From Escherichia phage vB_EcoP_DE5: 64,000 nt of DNA. Every line of letters begins with the position of its first letter. Position 1 is the first letter of the stretch. Below the pieces are notes generated by a model that saw only the letters and a program-made list of their open reading frames with translations, ran no database searches and was not told the DNA's origin. The stretch lies in the sequence record MW741821.1; one strand, given 5' to 3'. A program made the position numbers and the translations under genes. This document shows positions 10,616 through 19,697 of the stretch, in pieces.

Positions 10616-10834
10616 CTAAAAATCACCTGATTTTACAAAATCATCACTAAGAATTTCGTCAATCTCTTTGCCGGTCAAATCTTTCCTGAACCAGCAACAA
10701 GGAACATTCACCCATTGACCAGAGTTGTTCTCTACAGAGCATAGATTCCCTGTCTTACTCTTGCATTTATAAGATTTTCCTTTATCTAGGCGATAGTGTA
10801 ATCTGTAAACTACAGACACAAGTGTTATCATCAC
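10616..10834 (-). CDS. hypothetical Cys-containing small protein (72 aa)
   Basis: ORF; 4-nt overlap with upstream ORF. Confidence 0.35.
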   Translation of the reverse strand: MMITLVSVVYRLHYRLDKGKSYKCKSKTGNLCSVENNSGQWVNVPCCWFRKDLTGKEIDEILSDDFVKSGDF

Positions 10835-11064
10835 TCACCTTTCTTAGCACGATCTTTGGCAGTTTTGCCAGTGCGGATGCGATGAGAAACGTTAACCAGA
10901 GTGCCACCATCAACTACGGTAACGCTCTTATTTTTAGCCAGATCAAACACAGTCTTCTCTGTACCACCCAAGCGAATTTGCTTAGGTTCGCTGAAGGTTT
11001 GGGTTGATTTGGATTGGAACTGAAACGGTTGACGGATTGCATCGATTGCGCTTACTTTAGACAT
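10831..11064 (-). CDS. hypothetical basic small protein (77 aa)
   Basis: ORF in minus-strand array. Confidence 0.4.
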   Translation of the reverse strand: MSKVSAIDAIRQPFQFQSKSTQTFSEPKQIRLGGTEKTVFDLAKNKSVTVVDGGTLVNVSHRIRTGKTAKDRAKKGE

Positions 11065-11083
11065 AGGGGAAATTCCTTAAAAA

Positions 11084-11105
11084 ATTATGGCTGCGTAGAG
11101 GGAAT
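11084..11105. repeat. near-perfect 22-bp palindrome centred on GAATTC
   Basis: GCGTAGAGGGAATTCCCTACGC; inner GGGAATTCCC is self-complementary. Confidence 0.6.
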
Positions 11106-11296
11106 TCCCTACGCAAATCGGGCCGCCCACAGAGAGGCGTCATAGTACTAAAAGGAGGAGAGAAGAGGGCTTATTTAGCTACCTTTTTCTGTCCGTTTAC
11201 GAACCAGATAATTGAACCGTCAGGCTGTCGTTGACCGAAGCCTTTCTGGTTAATCATATCGTCATAAGAATATGCTTTACGTCTCATTTGTTTTCC

Positions 11297-11551
11297 CTAC
11301 GAAGTTAAGATGATTTCAGCCTTAATAAACTTCTCACCAACAACCATATCACCAGAGATGACACGTAGTTCTCCAGTGCCTAGGTTAACAGCTCCAGCAG
11401 GTTGACAACCCCTGCTTTTAGCTGTCATCATATAAACCTTTTGATTTTGGCACTCTTGGAGAGTGAACACATCTGACATATTTAGATCTCTGACGCGGAG
11501 GATTTTTTCCTCTTTGTCTTTAACTTTAATGTTAATAATGCTCATATGCAC
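11297..11551 (-). CDS. small paralog-family protein (84 aa)
   Basis: One of four back-to-back ORFs of about 80-84 aa with shared MK.. N-terminus and similar size. Confidence 0.45.
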   Translation of the reverse strand: MHMSIINIKVKDKEEKILRVRDLNMSDVFTLQECQNQKVYMMTAKSRGCQPAGAVNLGTGELRVISGDMVVGEKFIKAEIILTS

Positions 11552-11796
11552 TACTCCTGAACCACTGACATACGAATCATTTCTACCTGATCATCAAGAC
11601 CTTTAACAGATAACATACCTGTGGAAAGGTTTACCACAGGAACCCAACCACTGGCTATACGGATGTTACCAGAAGCATTTTCAACCCTCATGTAATACTG
11701 AGGAGAGGCACTTCCGTTCTGAACCACGAAAGGGTTTCCGGGAATGATTGTTTCCAATCGTACCGTATTATCCTTTTTCTTTGGGATGATTTTCAT
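11551..11796 (-). CDS. small paralog-family protein (81 aa)
   Basis: Tandem array member; start/stop overlaps with neighbours. Confidence 0.45.
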   Translation of the reverse strand: MKIIPKKKDNTVRLETIIPGNPFVVQNGSASPQYYMRVENASGNIRIASGWVPVVNLSTGMLSVKGLDDQVEMIRMSVVQE

Positions 11797-12044
11797 TGCG
11801 TATTATCCACCAAAAGTTCTGCTGATACAGGAACAACTCGGCACCAGATAGAAGGTGCTGTTACGTTACCATCGGATAGACGAAGAGTAATTGTTCGATC
11901 AGAGTTAACGGTTACATTAGGACTTTCAGACACAGACCCTTTAACATAGAGAGTAGCACTCTCAGGGAATTTAAACACTGCTCCGCTGGGGAGGGAGTTG
12001 AGATCAATCGTGGTCACTTCTTCTTTCTTGTGGGTAATCTTCAT
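11793..12044 (-). CDS. small paralog-family protein (83 aa)
   Basis: Tandem array member; ATGA-type overlaps. Confidence 0.45.
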   Translation of the reverse strand: MKITHKKEEVTTIDLNSLPSGAVFKFPESATLYVKGSVSESPNVTVNSDRTITLRLSDGNVTAPSIWCRVVPVSAELLVDNTQ

Positions 12045-12295
12045 TTAGAATCCTTAATAACGTTAGCTTCAACCTTAACAGGAATAACAGAGATGCCCTC
12101 AACGGGGCCACTTAAGTGTCCATCTTCCAGTCTGACACACACGACTCGATCTCGTGCAACTTCTACCCAATTAGTAGATGCCGCAGTACAGACCATATGA
12201 ATTGGACCGTTCTCTTCCAGCCGGAAGGTATCGCCCTTCTTCAGAGTGTGGAGTTTCACAGTCTTGATAGTTTTGTTCAATTCGTTAACTTTCAT
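12041..12295 (-). CDS. small paralog-family protein (84 aa)
   Basis: Tandem array member. Confidence 0.45.
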   Translation of the reverse strand: MKVNELNKTIKTVKLHTLKKGDTFRLEENGPIHMVCTAASTNWVEVARDRVVCVRLEDGHLSGPVEGISVIPVKVEANVIKDSK

Positions 12296-12303
12296 ATTGA
12301 TTC

Positions 12304-12615
12304 CTATTTAAGTTTGAGGCTAATGTTAAGGTGCATACATGCTCTGTTCTGTACAGCAGCATAACTTCTACCGAGCATGTCAGCCATTCTCTGAATAGAC
12401 ATGAACCCAGCATTACGGATAAGGAACTGGTCCTCTTCTTCAGACCATTTAACTCGGATTGAAGCTCTTGATATGCCGAATTTAGTGCAAGCTGTGTTAA
12501 CAGCATTCTCCGTTACATTCATAATCTGAGCTACTTCTTGAACCGAGTACTCTTTGATTAGTCTCCGAAGATTTTCAATCTGCATCGGAGTCCATATAGT
12601 TCTTCGTGCTTTCAT
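12304..12615 (-). CDS. putative DNA-binding protein with two tandem HTH-like repeats
   Basis: Internal duplication: WTPMQIENLRRL...VQEVAQIMNVTENAV and WSEEEDQFLIRN...IQRMADMLGRSYAAV, resembling Myb/SANT or sigma region-4 HTH units. Confidence 0.45.
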   Translation of the reverse strand: MKARRTIWTPMQIENLRRLIKEYSVQEVAQIMNVTENAVNTACTKFGISRASIRVKWSEEEDQFLIRNAGFMSIQRMADMLGRSYAAVQNRACMHLNISLKLK

Positions 12616-13293
12616 ACATCCTCCAATTAATTGTTAAAACTATCAGGGGAGAACACTAGCTCTGGGCCACGCTGTAGATATTGGCCTACCTTCCACAGCT
12701 AATCAGCTAATATACTCCCCTAATAGTTTATGAATAGGGGGAGGGGACGAATCCTCCCTTATCCTATTAGTTAATATTGCATGTAAGATCTAACAATCGG
12801 TTGCCTTTGTAGGAATAAGCGTAAAGCCAATCCAGCACTAAACTCCCGCCCCCTTAGTGGGCTGGGTTATTAAAGGGTAACGCCCTTATGGGCTAGTTAC
12901 ATGAATGTTAGTTTGATAGGAGATCTGAAGTCCTATCTCAAAGGACTCTCGTAAGAATCCTTCACGATATTACTTATTCATCTCTCGTCGGCTATCTCTC
13001 CAAGCCAACCAAGTGTAGGTTTTCAGTTCTTCAAAGTCTTCTGGAGAGAATAGATACTCTTTGAAGGTGTTCCCAAACCACTCTAAAAATTCTTCAGTCA
13101 TAAGATTCTCTTAACAAGATTGGTCACACGGCTGATCACCACATGTTTTACAGATCACTGGTGAGTAACTACAGGCAGGATAAACAGACACCCCATCAAA
13201 CGTCTCACATCCACAATCAGGACATGTACCGTTGGATTCCATGTCATCATCGTCATCTACTTCACCGCCACCAAAACAACTCATACAGGCTCC

Positions 13294-13515
13294 TTAGTAA
13301 ACTAAACCTGTAGCCTTTGCATCAGGCTGAGGGACTACTTTTGCACTAGGGCGATAGCCATCCACTGAGCCGTTCCAAAGATTGACACAGGTGATATATC
13401 CATCGTCTATGATGTCTGTTTTAATCCAGAAGTGTTTATCATGACCAAAAATACTTCCGTTTGGCAGCGTGGACAATTCAACAGTTTTAAGTGACTGCTT
13501 AGAGTCTAGTTTCAT
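13294..13515 (-). CDS. small paralog-family protein (73 aa)
   Basis: Resembles 16007-16225 product (G..F...D..FW.....DG......L..GSV......VVP.PD). Confidence 0.45.
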   Translation of the reverse strand: MKLDSKQSLKTVELSTLPNGSIFGHDKHFWIKTDIIDDGYITCVNLWNGSVDGYRPSAKVVPQPDAKATGLVY

Positions 13516-13723
13516 ATAAGTTCCTTAATATACCAAACCATGTAAAAGAAACATCCTCTTTGTAAGCTCTGCTTTAGCTCTGTAATAAGCCTTAGAACCT
13601 AACAGGCGGCTCTTAACAAAGAACTTAATGTCATTGCTAACATCTTGTATTAAACGCTCCTGTACAGTTTCTGAGGAGTTATTAATCGAATCAATTAACA
13701 CCTTTGTAGATGTGTAATTCATA

Positions 13724-14023
13724 TCACCACTCCTTACCGGTTGTAATCGTAGAGCCACCACACCACAATGCTGTATCAATAACAACATTATCCGGTGTAG
13801 ACTTCTCTTCGTTGATAGAAGGGTTAGCATTAGAACAGGTTGCTCCGTTCCATCGCATATCAATTTCACCAGAAGGAATCTTCTCACCCTTATGCCAGCG
13901 AGAAACACAAACACCTTCCACTGCTACTGCACACCATCCATCAGGACGGCTCTGTACGCAGCCTGTAAGGGCTATGCAGACAAGGAAGATACAGATTAAG
14001 GATATTACACCACCCCAACTCAT
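13724..14023 (-). CDS. putative lipoprotein (99 aa)
   Basis: Hydrophobic N-terminal segment ending in lipobox-like LTGC, then Cys-rich soluble part. Confidence 0.5.
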   Translation of the reverse strand: MSWGGVISLICIFLVCIALTGCVQSRPDGWCAVAVEGVCVSRWHKGEKIPSGEIDMRWNGATCSNANPSINEEKSTPDNVVIDTALWCGGSTITTGKEW

Positions 14024-14162
14024 AATTACCTCCTATTAGATTTGGTGGACTATCTGGAATCGAACCAGAAGCTCACTAAGAAAGTAATTCCCACTGTTAT
14101 AAAAGCACTTGCCTCAACAGGGATACACTAACTCTGGTGCCGCACCCATACTAGCCCTAAAT

Positions 14163-14238
14163 GTGGTGCGCCCTACAGGACTCGAACCTGTAACCAATAG
14201 CTTAGAAGGCTACTGCTCTATCCATTGAGCTAAGAGCG
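14163..14238 (-). tRNA. tRNA-Arg (anticodon UCU)
   Basis: Hand-folded 76-nt cloverleaf on minus strand: acceptor GCGCUCU/AGGGCGC, D-arm GCUC/GAGC, anticodon stem GUAGC/GCUAU with loop CUUCUAA, T-arm ACAGG-UUCGAGU-CCUGU, discriminator A, encoded CCA. Confidence 0.75.
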
Positions 14239-14414
14239 CAGAATTATTTAGATCATATCTCGCTTGGTGATATGACCACATGTTTTACATCGAAGTATAT
14301 AACGAGTACCTGTGTCTTCTATTTGACCAATCTCATTATATATGTGTAAACGAACTTCTTTTATTGTCTCCCAATCATGCAGATGGAATAGACGTTTAAA
14401 CCACTTGAACATAA

Positions 14415-14708
14415 TTACACCACCTCAACGAGAGATGTTTTCCATGCAAACAGAGGTCCATTATCGTTAAGATAAACAGCTCCTCCCGTCTCGAACGGAG
14501 TCCCATAAGGAAGTGCCCAAGCATACCCACGAATTTCTGGCTTATGGGTAAACCCATATACCTCGCCGTTGCTATCAGTTGCTAAATATCTTATAGAGCT
14601 GTCCACTTTAACAACTTCGCCAAAATATTTAACCTCTTTTCCTTTCATATTAACCTCAAGCACAAGCAGGGAGTGTGATGATTTTATGCTTACCATCAAA
14701 TTCTCCAA
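14415..14708 (-). CDS. hypothetical protein, paralog of 14656-14907
   Basis: Shared Y.A.D..G.V pattern with neighbour; true start probably internal. Confidence 0.4.
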   Translation of the reverse strand: MENLMVSIKSSHSLLVLEVNMKGKEVKYFGEVVKVDSSIRYLATDSNGEVYGFTHKPEIRGYAWALPYGTPFETGGAVYLNDNGPLFAWKTSLVEVV

Positions 14709-14907
14709 ATAAACCTAAGAATGTGGGACTGTAAGTTCCAGTACAAACAAACTCATCAAACAATGCGTTATAACTAGGCTTGATCTTCCAAGCCCATACA
14801 TAACCCATCTTGTCAATTGCAATGTAACGAGTGTTCAGAGGAACAGTCATCATTATACCATCAACTTCGATCACTTTAGTGATTGGTGCAGCTTGGAAGT
14901 TTTTCAT
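14656..14907 (-). CDS. hypothetical protein, paralog of 14415-14708
   Basis: ORF; similarity by eye to neighbour. Confidence 0.4.
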   Translation of the reverse strand: MKNFQAAPITKVIEVDGIMMTVPLNTRYIAIDKMGYVWAWKIKPSYNALFDEFVCTGTYSPTFLGLFGEFDGKHKIITLPACA

Positions 14908-15072
14908 ACTTTACCTTTGATAAAAATGTCATTACCACAGACACAGCATGAACGAACAACAGTAGCGCCACGCTGAACAATACGAACCTCTTCCTTAACC
15001 AGACTAATACGAGCACCGCAGCAAGGAGAGTTGACATAAGAGTAACCAGCTTGCGTATGTTTGATTATTTGC

Positions 15073-15486
15073 TTAGACATTTGATTCTAGATCTCTTAGT
15101 TGTTCAGCCAATTGTTCGCATTCATTAACGCAGAACTCTTCTGTTCTTGGTATCCCGTTAGGGTTGAACCGTGTCTTATCACCTGCATGGGCACAATCAA
15201 ATCCGATTGTATCTAAACCACCCATCTCTTCAAGGGTGTCTTGCCATGTGACACCACCATGAACACTTACATAACAAACCTCTTCCTTTCCGTTATATCC
15301 GGTGAAGTTTTTATGTTTTAAGCTGTCTGGTAGCTCTACATATCCACAAAAATGGGAGTCGTTCATGTGCATAATCACAGCACGAAGACCTGATTTAGTG
15401 ACCCAATCTTTAACCATGCGTCTCATATAAGCACCTCTTGTTAGTTTAAGTAAGAGTTGTCCCTTAATTAAAACAACAAAGGCCAC
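15073..15486 (-). CDS. hypothetical protein (137 aa)
   Basis: ORF with conserved-looking VSVHGGVTW and GFDCAHAGD segments; function not recognised. Confidence 0.45.
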   Translation of the reverse strand: MAFVVLIKGQLLLKLTRGAYMRRMVKDWVTKSGLRAVIMHMNDSHFCGYVELPDSLKHKNFTGYNGKEEVCYVSVHGGVTWQDTLEEMGGLDTIGFDCAHAGDKTRFNPNGIPRTEEFCVNECEQLAEQLRDLESNV

Positions 15487-16006
15487 CCGAAGGCAGCCTT
15501 TTATTTATTAACTGTTATACGTCCAATTACCTTGCTTGTTACGGATGGCTGACATTGCATGAATCCAAAAGCCTTCCAGTTTCAGAGCACCATTAGCTAC
15601 TGCATCCATACGTTCAGGGCGGTTCATACGTTTGGTTGATACTTTCATACCTATCTCTCTTTGTTAGTGGAGGCATTATTGCCAGTTGATATAAGGGATA
15701 GCCCTAGTCAGTAGACTAACCCTGACCGCGTACTCATTGCCGACCTTCTCTGCCTAAGAGTTCAGGTTCTAGAGCTATCTCTTATTCCAACTGGTGAAGA
15801 CTCCCTACCCCTAGGAAGTCTCCTGAATCCCAAACCAATACGTACCCCTACATATCGGAAAGTCTTTCGAAAATTAACAGGTTTTAGTCTAACACCGGAT
15901 GTTCGAGCAAGCTCTCCCTAGCGGTGTGGCATATGCCTGAATTAATAAGTTAATGAGGAACACCCTCACATAGCCCTCTGATAAACACAAGGGCTATAAG
16001 TCGGTG

Positions 16007-16225
16007 TTACTTTTGGGATAAACACAGATCAGGTCGTGGCATAACAGTGGTTGATAGACCGAAGACTTCAACAGAACCACTGCTCAAGTTAGCAGCCTTA
16101 CACAAACCATCAGGGGTTTTATCTTCTAGCATCAGCCAGAAACGTTTATCATAAGAGAAAACATCACCACCTTTAACGTCCTCTGCATTTGCATATTTAG
16201 GATAATCAACTACTTTAATTTCCAT
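16007..16225 (-). CDS. small paralog-family protein (72 aa)
   Basis: Similar to 13294-13515 product. Confidence 0.45.
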   Translation of the reverse strand: MEIKVVDYPKYANAEDVKGGDVFSYDKRFWLMLEDKTPDGLCKAANLSSGSVEVFGLSTTVMPRPDLCLSQK

Positions 16226-16235
16226 CTAATTGCCC

Positions 16236-16454
16236 TTATTGATATATAGAAAGGTGGATAAGTTTATTAACATGAGCGAAGTTAGGAAGGATTTGCATCT
16301 CATTGTTGAAGATATTAAAACAACGAACCCCGCCCTCTACAGCATAAGCAGATTTCTGAAACAGACTGCCTCCCCACACAAATACATCATGTGTTTCAAG
16401 AGATCGTAACTGAACAGCCTCGTCAACAACCTTCTTTTCAATGTTCATATTCAC
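16236..16454 (-). CDS. small protein (72 aa)
   Basis: Tandem array member. Confidence 0.4.
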   Translation of the reverse strand: MNMNIEKKVVDEAVQLRSLETHDVFVWGGSLFQKSAYAVEGGVRCFNIFNNEMQILPNFAHVNKLIHLSIYQ

Positions 16455-16702
16455 TTCCGATTGGTAATTACTGCATCATGGATAACTGAAACAGGTAAGT
16501 TTGAATCTAGCTTCATTACTTGATTGGTGCTTAAACTGAGCACTACACAACCATTCCGAAGATCAGTCTCTGACACATGTGGTGTATATAACTGAACGAT
16601 CATGTAATAATCAATACATGTTGCCTTAACTTGGAATACATCACCAAGTTTCAAATCACCCACACACAATTCTTTAGCTTTCATCTCAAGATCAATCTTC
16701 AT
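16451..16702 (-). CDS. small paralog-family protein (83 aa)
   Basis: MK start, L.LGDVF motif shared with 11297-12295 family; 4-nt overlap. Confidence 0.45.
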   Translation of the reverse strand: MKIDLEMKAKELCVGDLKLGDVFQVKATCIDYYMIVQLYTPHVSETDLRNGCVVLSLSTNQVMKLDSNLPVSVIHDAVITNRK

Positions 16703-16928
16703 CTTTAGCCTCTATGTTGGTTATGTGAAGATCACTACGTACTTGGCAGACTTCATCCCGTTTAAAAGGCATGAGCTTTCCAGTTACCACATCAACACAG
16801 TTGACATAATTGTCTGCGTACAATGTGTCGGTTCTGATGTAAAGGGATTCTTTACGCTCAAACAGAACCCCCGGCTTCATGTTATTTAAGCGAAGCATTG
16901 TACGATCGGATTTAATATTAACTTTCAT
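16692..16928 (-). CDS. small paralog-family protein (78 aa)
   Basis: Tandem array member with overlapping start/stop. Confidence 0.45.
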   Translation of the reverse strand: MKVNIKSDRTMLRLNNMKPGVLFERKESLYIRTDTLYADNYVNCVDVVTGKLMPFKRDEVCQVRSDLHITNIEAKDED

Positions 16929-16930
16929 CT

Positions 16931-17245
16931 TTAATCCACCTTATTGGTAAGTCGAGCATTATCAACTACCTGAACAACAGTATCTTTTCTCAACATTGTT
17001 ATTCTATCCGAAGTGAGATCTACTACTACTCTTTCGTCAGGCTTCCAACTAGCTGAATAAACGGTTGAGGAATCTAGCTTTACTGTAAGATATATTTTAT
17101 TTTTAGGTGGAACAGTTTCAAAAACACTCCCCACCTTCAGGTCTTTCAGTTGCTTGACTACAGGGGCTGTATTAATATCATGCTTCATTGTTAATCTCCT
17201 GCTGTTTAGCAATAGCCACTCGCAAGTCTTCATTAGCACGAGCAA
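16931..17245 (-). CDS. small paralog-family protein (start probably internal at MKHDIN)
   Basis: L.DLKVGSVF motif as in family. Confidence 0.4.
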   Translation of the reverse strand: MLVLMKTCEWLLLNSRRLTMKHDINTAPVVKQLKDLKVGSVFETVPPKNKIYLTVKLDSSTVYSASWKPDERVVVDLTSDRITMLRKDTVVQVVDNARLTNKVD

Positions 17246-17474
17246 GGCGTAACACTTCGTGGTTGAGGTTCTGAAGACGCTTGTTTCTGTCCTCTACTTG
17301 CATAATAAGATCATTAAGTGTTACTTTAACTTTCTCATTATACATCTCATCCACTCGAACTAGGGATTTATACATTCTCTCCCAGCTTGCTGCTTTGTTT
17401 CTGAGAATAATAAATCCTAGAACGCTGATAGTTAAACAGCTTACAAAAAGGAATTTATATACTTCTAAAGTCAT
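17178..17474 (-). CDS. membrane-anchored coiled-coil protein (98 aa)
   Basis: N-terminal hydrophobic helix followed by charged heptad-like region. Confidence 0.4.
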   Translation of the reverse strand: MTLEVYKFLFVSCLTISVLGFIILRNKAASWERMYKSLVRVDEMYNEKVKVTLNDLIMQVEDRNKRLQNLNHEVLRLARANEDLRVAIAKQQEINNEA

Positions 17475-18112: not shown

Positions 18113-18138
18113 AAAAAAGCCCCAGCCGTAGCCGGGGC
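18113..18138 (-). terminator. putative intrinsic terminator
   Basis: GC-rich hairpin (GCCCCGGC/GCUGGGGC, one mismatch) followed on minus strand by six U. Confidence 0.5.
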
Positions 18139-19661: not shown

Positions 19662-19697
19662 TAAAAGAAAAGGCGCTACCCGTTAAGATAGCGCCTT
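19662..19697 (-). terminator. putative intrinsic terminator after 19720-20628 gene
   Basis: 9-bp stem AAGGCGCTA/TAGCGCCTT with 10-nt loop, followed on minus strand by UUUUCUUUU. Confidence 0.55.

Follow-up and report, generated by a model that had tools for sequence, protein, structure and literature searches.

Ten short open reading frames (ORFs) lying between positions 10,616 and 17,245 of a 64,000-nucleotide stretch of Escherichia phage vB_EcoP_DE5 DNA (record MW741821.1; hereafter the window) are anciently diverged paralogs of one uncharacterised family of small proteins, 70–85 residues in length. They are designated A1 to A10 by position (Table 1). The original prediction, made from the sequence alone, had described this region as a lineage-specific expansion in tandem, overlapping arrays that would encode diversifying host-takeover or anti-defence effectors. 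The multi-copy family and its tandem, translationally coupled arrangement were confirmed, and structure models support a common small beta-barrel fold. It is proposed, with moderate confidence, that the ten diverged barrels are non-enzymatic binding modules, which would form a modular accessory set of host-modulating factors acting early after infection.

Relationships within the window were evaluated against all of its 451 ORFs of at least 35 amino acids (aa). A MAFFT alignment of the ten proteins reveals a common pattern, M-K-I ... L..L..G.VF ... Y ... V.L..G ... V, while pairwise identity is 11–30% and only about 6 of the 45 pairs reach an expectation value (E) below 0.01. In phmmer comparisons, the clearest pairs were A3-A4 (3e-9), A5-A6 (5e-9), A5-A9 (7e-5), A8-A10 (4e-4), and A5-A3 (1e-3). 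Hidden Markov models built from the nine other proteins recovered nine of the ten members at E values from 1e-9 to 3e-5, ahead of every non-member (best E 0.06). These nine have real scores of 20–33 bits, whereas 300 shuffles per member average about 0 and do not exceed 12 bits (z 11–22). A7 is weakly matched by its nine in-genome paralogs (7 bits, shuffle z 4.5). A wide profile of 261 family sequences, from which the tested member and all sequences at least 35% identical to it had been removed, recovers A7 at 24.8 bits (E 4e-7) and the other nine paralogs at E 7e-9 to 3e-14, the best non-member having an E of 0.14 or worse. Thus, the family was recovered cleanly by profiles, and the similarity extends beyond composition. 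An eleventh member was not found in the 64-kb window, where the next ORF scored at most 6.7 bits.

The ten genes comprise a block of four (11297-12295), a singleton (13294-13515), and a block of five (16007-17188). The predicted ORF list stood in that all of them, and exactly ten, exist on the minus strand, but two boundaries had to be corrected: A10 probably starts at ATG 17188 rather than TTG 17245 (AGGAG 8 nucleotides (nt) upstream, in agreement with the deposited coding sequence), and the probable start of A1 is ATG 11545 (AGGAG 9 nt upstream). The predicted extent of the array likewise holds for its ten members and not for 10616-11296, which contains three small genes unrelated to the family. 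The ATGA-type start/stop overlaps are present at 12041-12044 (A4/A3) and 11793-11796 (A3/A2), and 11-nt overlaps occur at 17178-17188 (between A10 and Bas90_0114) and 16692-16702 (A9/A8). A Shine-Dalgarno-like motif is found 6–11 nt upstream of every family start, such as AGGAA upstream of ATG 12295 of A4. Neither a signal peptide nor a membrane segment is visible in the sequences of the ten paralogs.

In PHROGs, the ten ORFs are distributed over seven home groups (6570, 7832, 7431, 16423, 9955, 12612, and 33163), all of "unknown function". Each ORF matches one home group at E 1e-12 to 1e-55 and others only as weak cross-hits, while PHROG 8365 receives cross-hits only. PHROGs keeps these groups apart as separate families, whereas the present analysis joins them as one superfamily. 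No Pfam match at an E of 1 or better was obtained for the ten ORFs except two chance-level ones, the KOW motif profile (PF00467) had no match among them, NCBIfam gave no match above noise, and a PDB sequence-profile search returned nothing significant (best E 0.06). The precomputed Pfam field is "-" for all 120 homologs listed. In addition, neither this paralogy nor functional data were found in literature searches or in the SU10, YF01, 7-11, and BASEL papers. What is new is therefore the family, which has no curated entry or literature, while small early gene arrays and SH3-like barrels are known.

Table 1. Coordinates of the family members, the second paralog pair, candidate promoters, and metagenomic loci
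Feature	Coordinates	Strand	Description
A1	11297..11545	-	82 aa; Bas90_0091; phrog_12612; leave-one-out 28.2 bits, E 3.7e-8; wide profile without relatives E 5.8e-14
A2	11551..11796	-	81 aa; Bas90_0092; phrog_7431; leave-one-out E 5.8e-8; wide profile E 1.6e-11
A3	11793..12044	-	83 aa; Bas90_0093; phrog_7832; leave-one-out E 3.3e-8; phmmer with A4 E 3.2e-9
A4	12041..12295	-	84 aa; Bas90_0094; phrog_7832; leave-one-out E 9.6e-10
A5	13294..13515	-	73 aa; Bas90_0098; phrog_6570; hub of the similarity network; structure modelled
A6	16007..16225	-	72 aa; Bas90_0109; phrog_6570; leave-one-out E 1.8e-6; wide profile E 7.3e-9
A7	16236..16448	-	70 aa; Bas90_0110; phrog_33163; most divergent member; phrog_6570 cross-hit E 0.0026
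A8	16451..16702	-	83 aa; Bas90_0111; phrog_9955; leave-one-out E 1e-7; pairwise with A10 E 4.5e-4
A9	16692..16928	-	78 aa; Bas90_0112; phrog_16423; leave-one-out E 7.8e-9; top family-profile score, 113.5 bits
A10	16931..17188	-	85 aa; Bas90_0113; phrog_9955 match E 1.3e-12; leave-one-out E 2.6e-5; structure modelled
Second pair, member 1	14415..14696	-	93 aa; Bas90_0103; phrog_1972 E 3.2e-14
Second pair, member 2	14656..14907	-	83 aa; Bas90_0104; phrog_1972 E 9.5e-20
Candidate early promoters	23968-23941, 22019-21991, 21571-21543	-	Near-consensus sigma70-type; 11/12 hexamer matches each; face the array
Metagenomic locus L017	2633-3436		Three-gene tandem array
Metagenomic locus L016	2828-3292		Two-domain single ORF
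Metagenomic locus L013	2842-3303		Helix-turn-helix fusion

With regard to structure, AlphaFold2 was run on a 130-sequence alignment. The A5 model (predicted local distance difference test score 82.9) consists of five main strands, to which a helical turn and a short strand at the N-terminus are added. In the A10 model (82.1), the elements follow one another as in A5, but the beta2-beta3 hairpin contains an insert, so the two predictions agree in strand order. With Foldseek, both models give template modelling (TM) scores of 0.6–0.8 to BFVD models of other paralog groups and return one common set of small phage proteins. This set includes independently modelled orthologs from NJ01, WFI101126, EcoN5, LAMP, Paul, EP335, and SU7, N4 gp21, PaP3 ORF65, and Salmonella phage 7-11 proteins, as well as proteins from phages of Klebsiella, Proteus, Providencia, Vibrio, Erwinia, Yersinia, Serratia, and Morganella. 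A common fold is supported by these models, namely a predicted small open SH3/Tudor/KOW-like beta-barrel of five to six antiparallel strands. A survey of cellular structural relatives in the PDB pointed to SH3-like small barrels of the uL2 C-terminal domain, EF-P domain I, eIF5A, Spt5 KOW, CarD, and the UvrD/PcrA Tudor-like domain, to which the phage proteins are 8–18% identical. The likeness lies in the predicted fold, whereas the phage proteins are free-standing and multi-copy and have no sequence-level match to these machinery barrels or KOW motif.

Across 136 family representatives, the most conserved columns (A5 numbering) are M1, K2, I3, L14, L17, G20, V22, F23, Y30, M/I31, C43, V44, L46, G49, V60, L70, and I72, which correspond to core hydrophobics and two turn glycines. 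The L..L..G.VF motif noted from the sequence was upheld in the same set (L 51%, L 71%, G 97%, V 65%, and F 99%). The MK(I/V) N-terminus, which had been ascribed to the whole group, is found in six of the ten, the other four starting with MSI, MEI, MNI, and MKH. Positions D21, K32, T33, N45, and T48 are moderately conserved polar residues, and no conserved polar set of catalytic type was seen in the 136 representatives. Together with the fusions of the domain to a second copy, to a helix-turn-helix, and to a protease (see below), the lack of a catalytic-type signature suggests a binding module. Hence, judged from sequence, the family members are probably non-enzymatic binding modules.

The family is widespread and not lineage-specific. 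A word-seeded search with the ten-sequence profile yielded 127 proteins of 68–93 aa, none with a Pfam domain, the complete contigs among which are about 68–80 kb. When 1.84 billion cluster representatives (50% identity) were searched exhaustively with HMMER, 936 reached an E of 1e-3 or better, most of them single-domain proteins of 60–90 aa. Two-domain fusions of 140–160 aa were also detected, one of which was verified as a single ORF beside Pyr_excise and NMN-transporter genes. In a phage-like contig of small ORFs, the family domain is fused to a C-terminal helix-turn-helix, and an unrelated 3.5-kb metagenomic contig carries three family copies in tandem. A SprT-like protein from a Tenacibaculum metagenome-assembled genome (MFV0249145.1, 478 aa) contains the same domain as five tandem repeats (23–26 bits each, whole-protein E 1.2e-20). 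It differs in being chromosomal (LpxK, RF-1, and SusC/D neighbours) and fused to a metalloprotease, and its repeats are strongly basic. The motif L.DLK.GD.F...HY...DL.tG occurs convincingly, once or twice, in four Pfam-less proteins of 2,100–3,200 aa, and the sole contig examined contained nothing else. Matches to cadherin and NHL-repeat giants were set aside as probably spurious cumulative ones, no domain exceeding 8 bits when rescored with the Kuravirus-family profile.

Among phages, the wide profile detects one family member in N4, gp21 (E 7.9e-18), and four in Salmonella phage 7-11. N4 gp21 (74 aa, uncharacterised) resembles the ten paralogs in family, size, and single-domain architecture, with Foldseek TM scores of 0.66–0.75 to both the A5 and A10 models, but it occurs as a single copy after the RNA polymerase II genes in another phage family (Schitoviridae). 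BLAST-level searches are unable to bridge lineages in this beta-barrel family: tblastn of the family consensus against a phage collection found mostly kuraviruses, and N4 gp21 as query found Enquatrovirus only. A scan of viral contigs with the family consensus gave no confirmed relative. The description as a lineage-specific expansion is thus valid for the size of the expansion, which is peculiar to the phiEco32 group, and not for the family itself, with its approximately 936 clusters including N4 gp21 and PaP3 ORF65.

Selection was analysed by the Nei-Gojobori method, genes of the window being compared with their orthologs in phiEco32, LAMP, NJ01, EP335, and Ptacy1479 (36 pairs). The synonymous rate (dS) could be estimated in 34 of these pairs, in which the ratio of nonsynonymous to synonymous rates (dN/dS) is 0.00–0.40, mostly 0.05–0.20. 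Such values indicate purifying selection on the encoded proteins and, therefore, real genes.

Copy number varies from 3 to 11 among seven phages. Counts were taken from comparable 15–24 kb segments, some of which end at the end of the record, and are thus lower bounds: at least 10 copies in SkaterBoy, 8–9 in phiEco32, 9–10 in NJ01, 11 in EP335 (Nieuwekanaalvirus), 10 in Ptacy1479, 3 in LAMP (68-kb clade), and 5–6 in Salmonella phage PKM.Hi.22.6 (Grimontviridae). In a gene-by-gene comparison, the family slots in relatives are often empty or occupied by divergent alleles, and alleles only 34–56% identical stand at conserved slots beside neighbours that are 90–100% identical. For example, A1 shows 100, 86, 56, 49, and 52% identity across five phages, the lowest ortholog identities are 44% for A5, 49% for A6, and 63–69% for A8, the A7 ortholog is found in NJ01 only, and A10 is absent or merely 37% identical in four of the five. 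Many neighbouring genes hold 90–100% identity, and some unrelated small genes are as variable as the family, so the whole cluster is mosaic, and the family constitutes a large share of this flux. The diversity stems from old paralogy (11–30% identity) and allele replacement at fixed slots. Only three pairs are recognisable pairwise; their genes are adjacent (A3-A4), one gene apart (A8-A10), or 2.5 kb apart (A5-A6), which fits old local duplications. With regard to a single clade that arose by duplication within the lineage as against separate acquisition of the copies, scores to "outside" representatives are as high as those between paralog groups, divergent Kuravirus alleles being part of the outside set and the proteins being too short for a dependable tree.

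The minus strand holds all genes from about 24000 down to 1. According to the literature on phiEco32, SU10, and YF01, the homologous leftward cluster is the sigma70-transcribed early class, consisting mostly of hypothetical "host takeover" genes. The location of the array in this leftward cluster is in keeping with its predicted placement in an early region, and the positions of the three candidate promoters (Table 1) agree with early promoters described for phiEco32 and SU10. It may thus be inferred that the array is expressed early in the window phage. Terminator-like sites (a GC-rich hairpin with a T-run) were also observed on the minus strand at 18119-18138, 19670-19697, 15478-15501, and 11091-11116, and the leftward cluster region contains 25 such sites versus 10.2 +/- 3.2 in shuffles.

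Small early genes are familiar from other phages. The SPO1 host-takeover module and the T7 class I genes are short, co-directional, tightly packed, mostly annotated without function, and variable between relatives. Their products are mostly mutually unrelated, whereas about one-fifth of the roughly 50 annotated genes of the early cluster in the window, namely ten, belong to one fold family, unrecognised in databases and papers. A host-takeover or anti-defence role, as originally proposed, is plausible from position and size. In the proposal favoured here, the conserved hydrophobic core and the two turn glycines would provide a fixed scaffold, while the hairpin loops and the surface vary between paralogs. 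Since loops and surface differ, the copies probably have different binding partners among host or phage macromolecules, and would bind them soon after infection. The array would then act as a modular set of accessory host-modulating factors. The comparisons show that each ortholog group is maintained by purifying selection, whereas entire genes appear, disappear, or give way to divergent alleles from one related phage to another.

Several points weigh against this proposal. No family member has an experimental characterisation or a known partner, and the net charges of the ten paralogs (-2 to +3) make no DNA-mimic or nucleic-acid-binding signature prominent. The 34 ortholog pairs show no gene-wide positive selection or sign of an arms race, so the "diversifying" character that had been predicted was not seen among orthologs. 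The expression timing is taken from relatives, and four terminator-like hairpins separate the paralog blocks from the presumed early promoters, so the array would have to be expressed by read-through or from internal promoters. In addition, the SU10 proteome table lists no family member; that sample was a phage preparation, so their absence from it says little.

Other explanations were considered. The first is a counter-defence island, in which each paralog would inhibit a different immune system and copy turnover would follow the set of defences that the hosts carry. The small size, early class, and accessory nature of the genes, and their high turnover of both presence and alleles, are compatible with such an island. 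It was also reported in the BASEL study that Gordonclarkvirinae are remarkably resistant to restriction-modification without a known inhibitor or modification pathway (PMC11990801). However, the same study proposes DNA modification as the basis of this resistance (PMC11990801), the orthologs are under plain purifying selection, and the family consensus has no tblastn match in PLSDB plasmids. Furthermore, no member matched a characterised family or a named anti-defence protein in Pfam, PHROGs, NCBIfam, or PDB sequences, no dedicated anti-defence library having been searched. A counter-defence island is thus regarded as possible but rather improbable. The second explanation, that the proteins modulate RNA polymerase, the ribosome, or RNA, would have the barrel dock on the transcription or translation machinery during takeover, as barrels are used in KOW, uL2, EF-P, and CarD/UvrD Tudor-like domains; this is considered doubtful. 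Equally tentative is a broader version of the binding-module proposal, in which the barrel would be a general-purpose, evolvable binder scaffold of virulent phages, with loops re-specified in each paralog against host factors including immune systems, and the arrays would be exchangeable host-range cassettes acting after adsorption. If true, it could explain the broad and so far unexplained resistance of Gordonclarkvirinae to bacterial defences.

The least likely of the remaining rivals is that the paralogs are substrates or adaptors of the neighbouring amidoligase/ATP-grasp/glutamine amidotransferase peptide-modification cluster. This cluster lies directly downstream on the same strand (Bas90_0080-0085). 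Phage 7-11 has it too, and notes on the record of that phage report it for PaP3; both phages carry family members. On the other hand, N4 has gp21 and yet no such cluster annotated in the 22 kb around it, the ten paralogs share no conserved C-terminus, and a direct connection was not found, which leaves this link highly improbable. Finally, the notion that shared composition explains the resemblance or that the ORFs do not represent genes, to which the mostly insignificant pairwise comparisons might lend some colour, is refuted by the shuffle controls, the clean profile recovery, the low dN/dS, the Shine-Dalgarno-like motifs, the predicted fold shared by two distant members, and the existence of hundreds of homologs, and its probability is regarded as negligible.

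The family draws its interest from being testable in a K-12-infecting phage of the BASEL collection, not from a demonstrated unusual mechanism. The Kuravirus group comprises common, therapeutically used coliphages, and SkaterBoy (Bas90), the nearest sequenced relative, belongs to a phenotyped collection and infects E. coli K-12 with restored O-antigen, which makes block deletions and pull-downs of the ten small soluble proteins feasible. The union of seven home PHROGs and one cross-hit PHROG, N4 gp21, PaP3 ORF65, and hundreds of metagenomic proteins also defines a target for functional screens. If the paralogs bind distinct host targets, they would offer, in compact form, new inhibitors directed at bacterial processes or defences; if not, the annotation would still be corrected. 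In this regard, barrel-family orthologs carry the labels "Endolysin" and "DNA helicase" in phage EcoN5, and that of "putative two-domain glycosyltransferase" in NJ01. Bas90_0114 (17178-17474, minus strand), whose 98-aa product has a hydrophobic N-terminus followed by a coiled-coil-like remainder, is also labelled "DNA helicase". Annotation errors have spread through the gene cluster.

As for relatives of the whole region, megablast matches positions 10616-17245 to Escherichia phage SkaterBoy_Bas90 (PQ850626.1, 77.5 kb) at 99.8% identity with 100% query coverage, and to over 100 further phiEco32-like podophages (Kuravirus, Gordonclarkvirinae) at 80–97%. The best identity of the neighbouring segment 17200-24200 to any record is only about 96%. 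Comparison of the ORF list with the Bas90 annotation revealed that, in the segment 18081-18453, a 57-aa ORF takes the place of the 918-nt "tail protein" gene Bas90_0117 (PQ850626.1 67884-68801), whose phiEco32 counterpart is gp119, an "agglutinating adhesin". The lower identity beyond 17200 and the missing Bas90_0117 indicate that the window, which belongs to a Kuravirus, represents a mosaic close relative of SkaterBoy and not SkaterBoy itself.

The second paralog pair predicted at 14415-14907 is real, its members matching each other in BLASTP (E 4e-4) and sharing phrog_1972. It is a separate family, unrelated to the ten paralogs.

Several other genes of the region merit mention, all on the minus strand. 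A 103-aa "D5-like transcriptional regulator" (12304-12615) lies between the first paralog block and the remaining paralogs, is conserved across the relatives examined, and has an apparent internal repeat of two similar W...E...L...helix-turn-helix-like halves. Bas90_0097 (13111-13284) encodes a Cys-rich protein of 57 aa that contains several CxxC-like pairs and an acidic stretch, DDDDD. No other small gene of the cluster is as well conserved (96–98% in three kuraviruses, 91% in EP335, absent from LAMP), and it is still 84% identical in a Grimontviridae Salmonella phage, where most neighbouring genes are unrecognisable. A tRNA-Arg with anticodon TCT, which reads AGA, is located at 14164-14239, inside the cluster between both paralog families, and the Arg-AGA codon is also discussed in the YF01 paper. 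Downstream of the array, at about 1-9850, the conserved genes of the peptide-modification cluster encode glutamine amidotransferase, amidoligase, COOH-NH2 ligase, and ATP-grasp proteins, and the proteins detected in the SU10 phage preparation include two products of this cluster.

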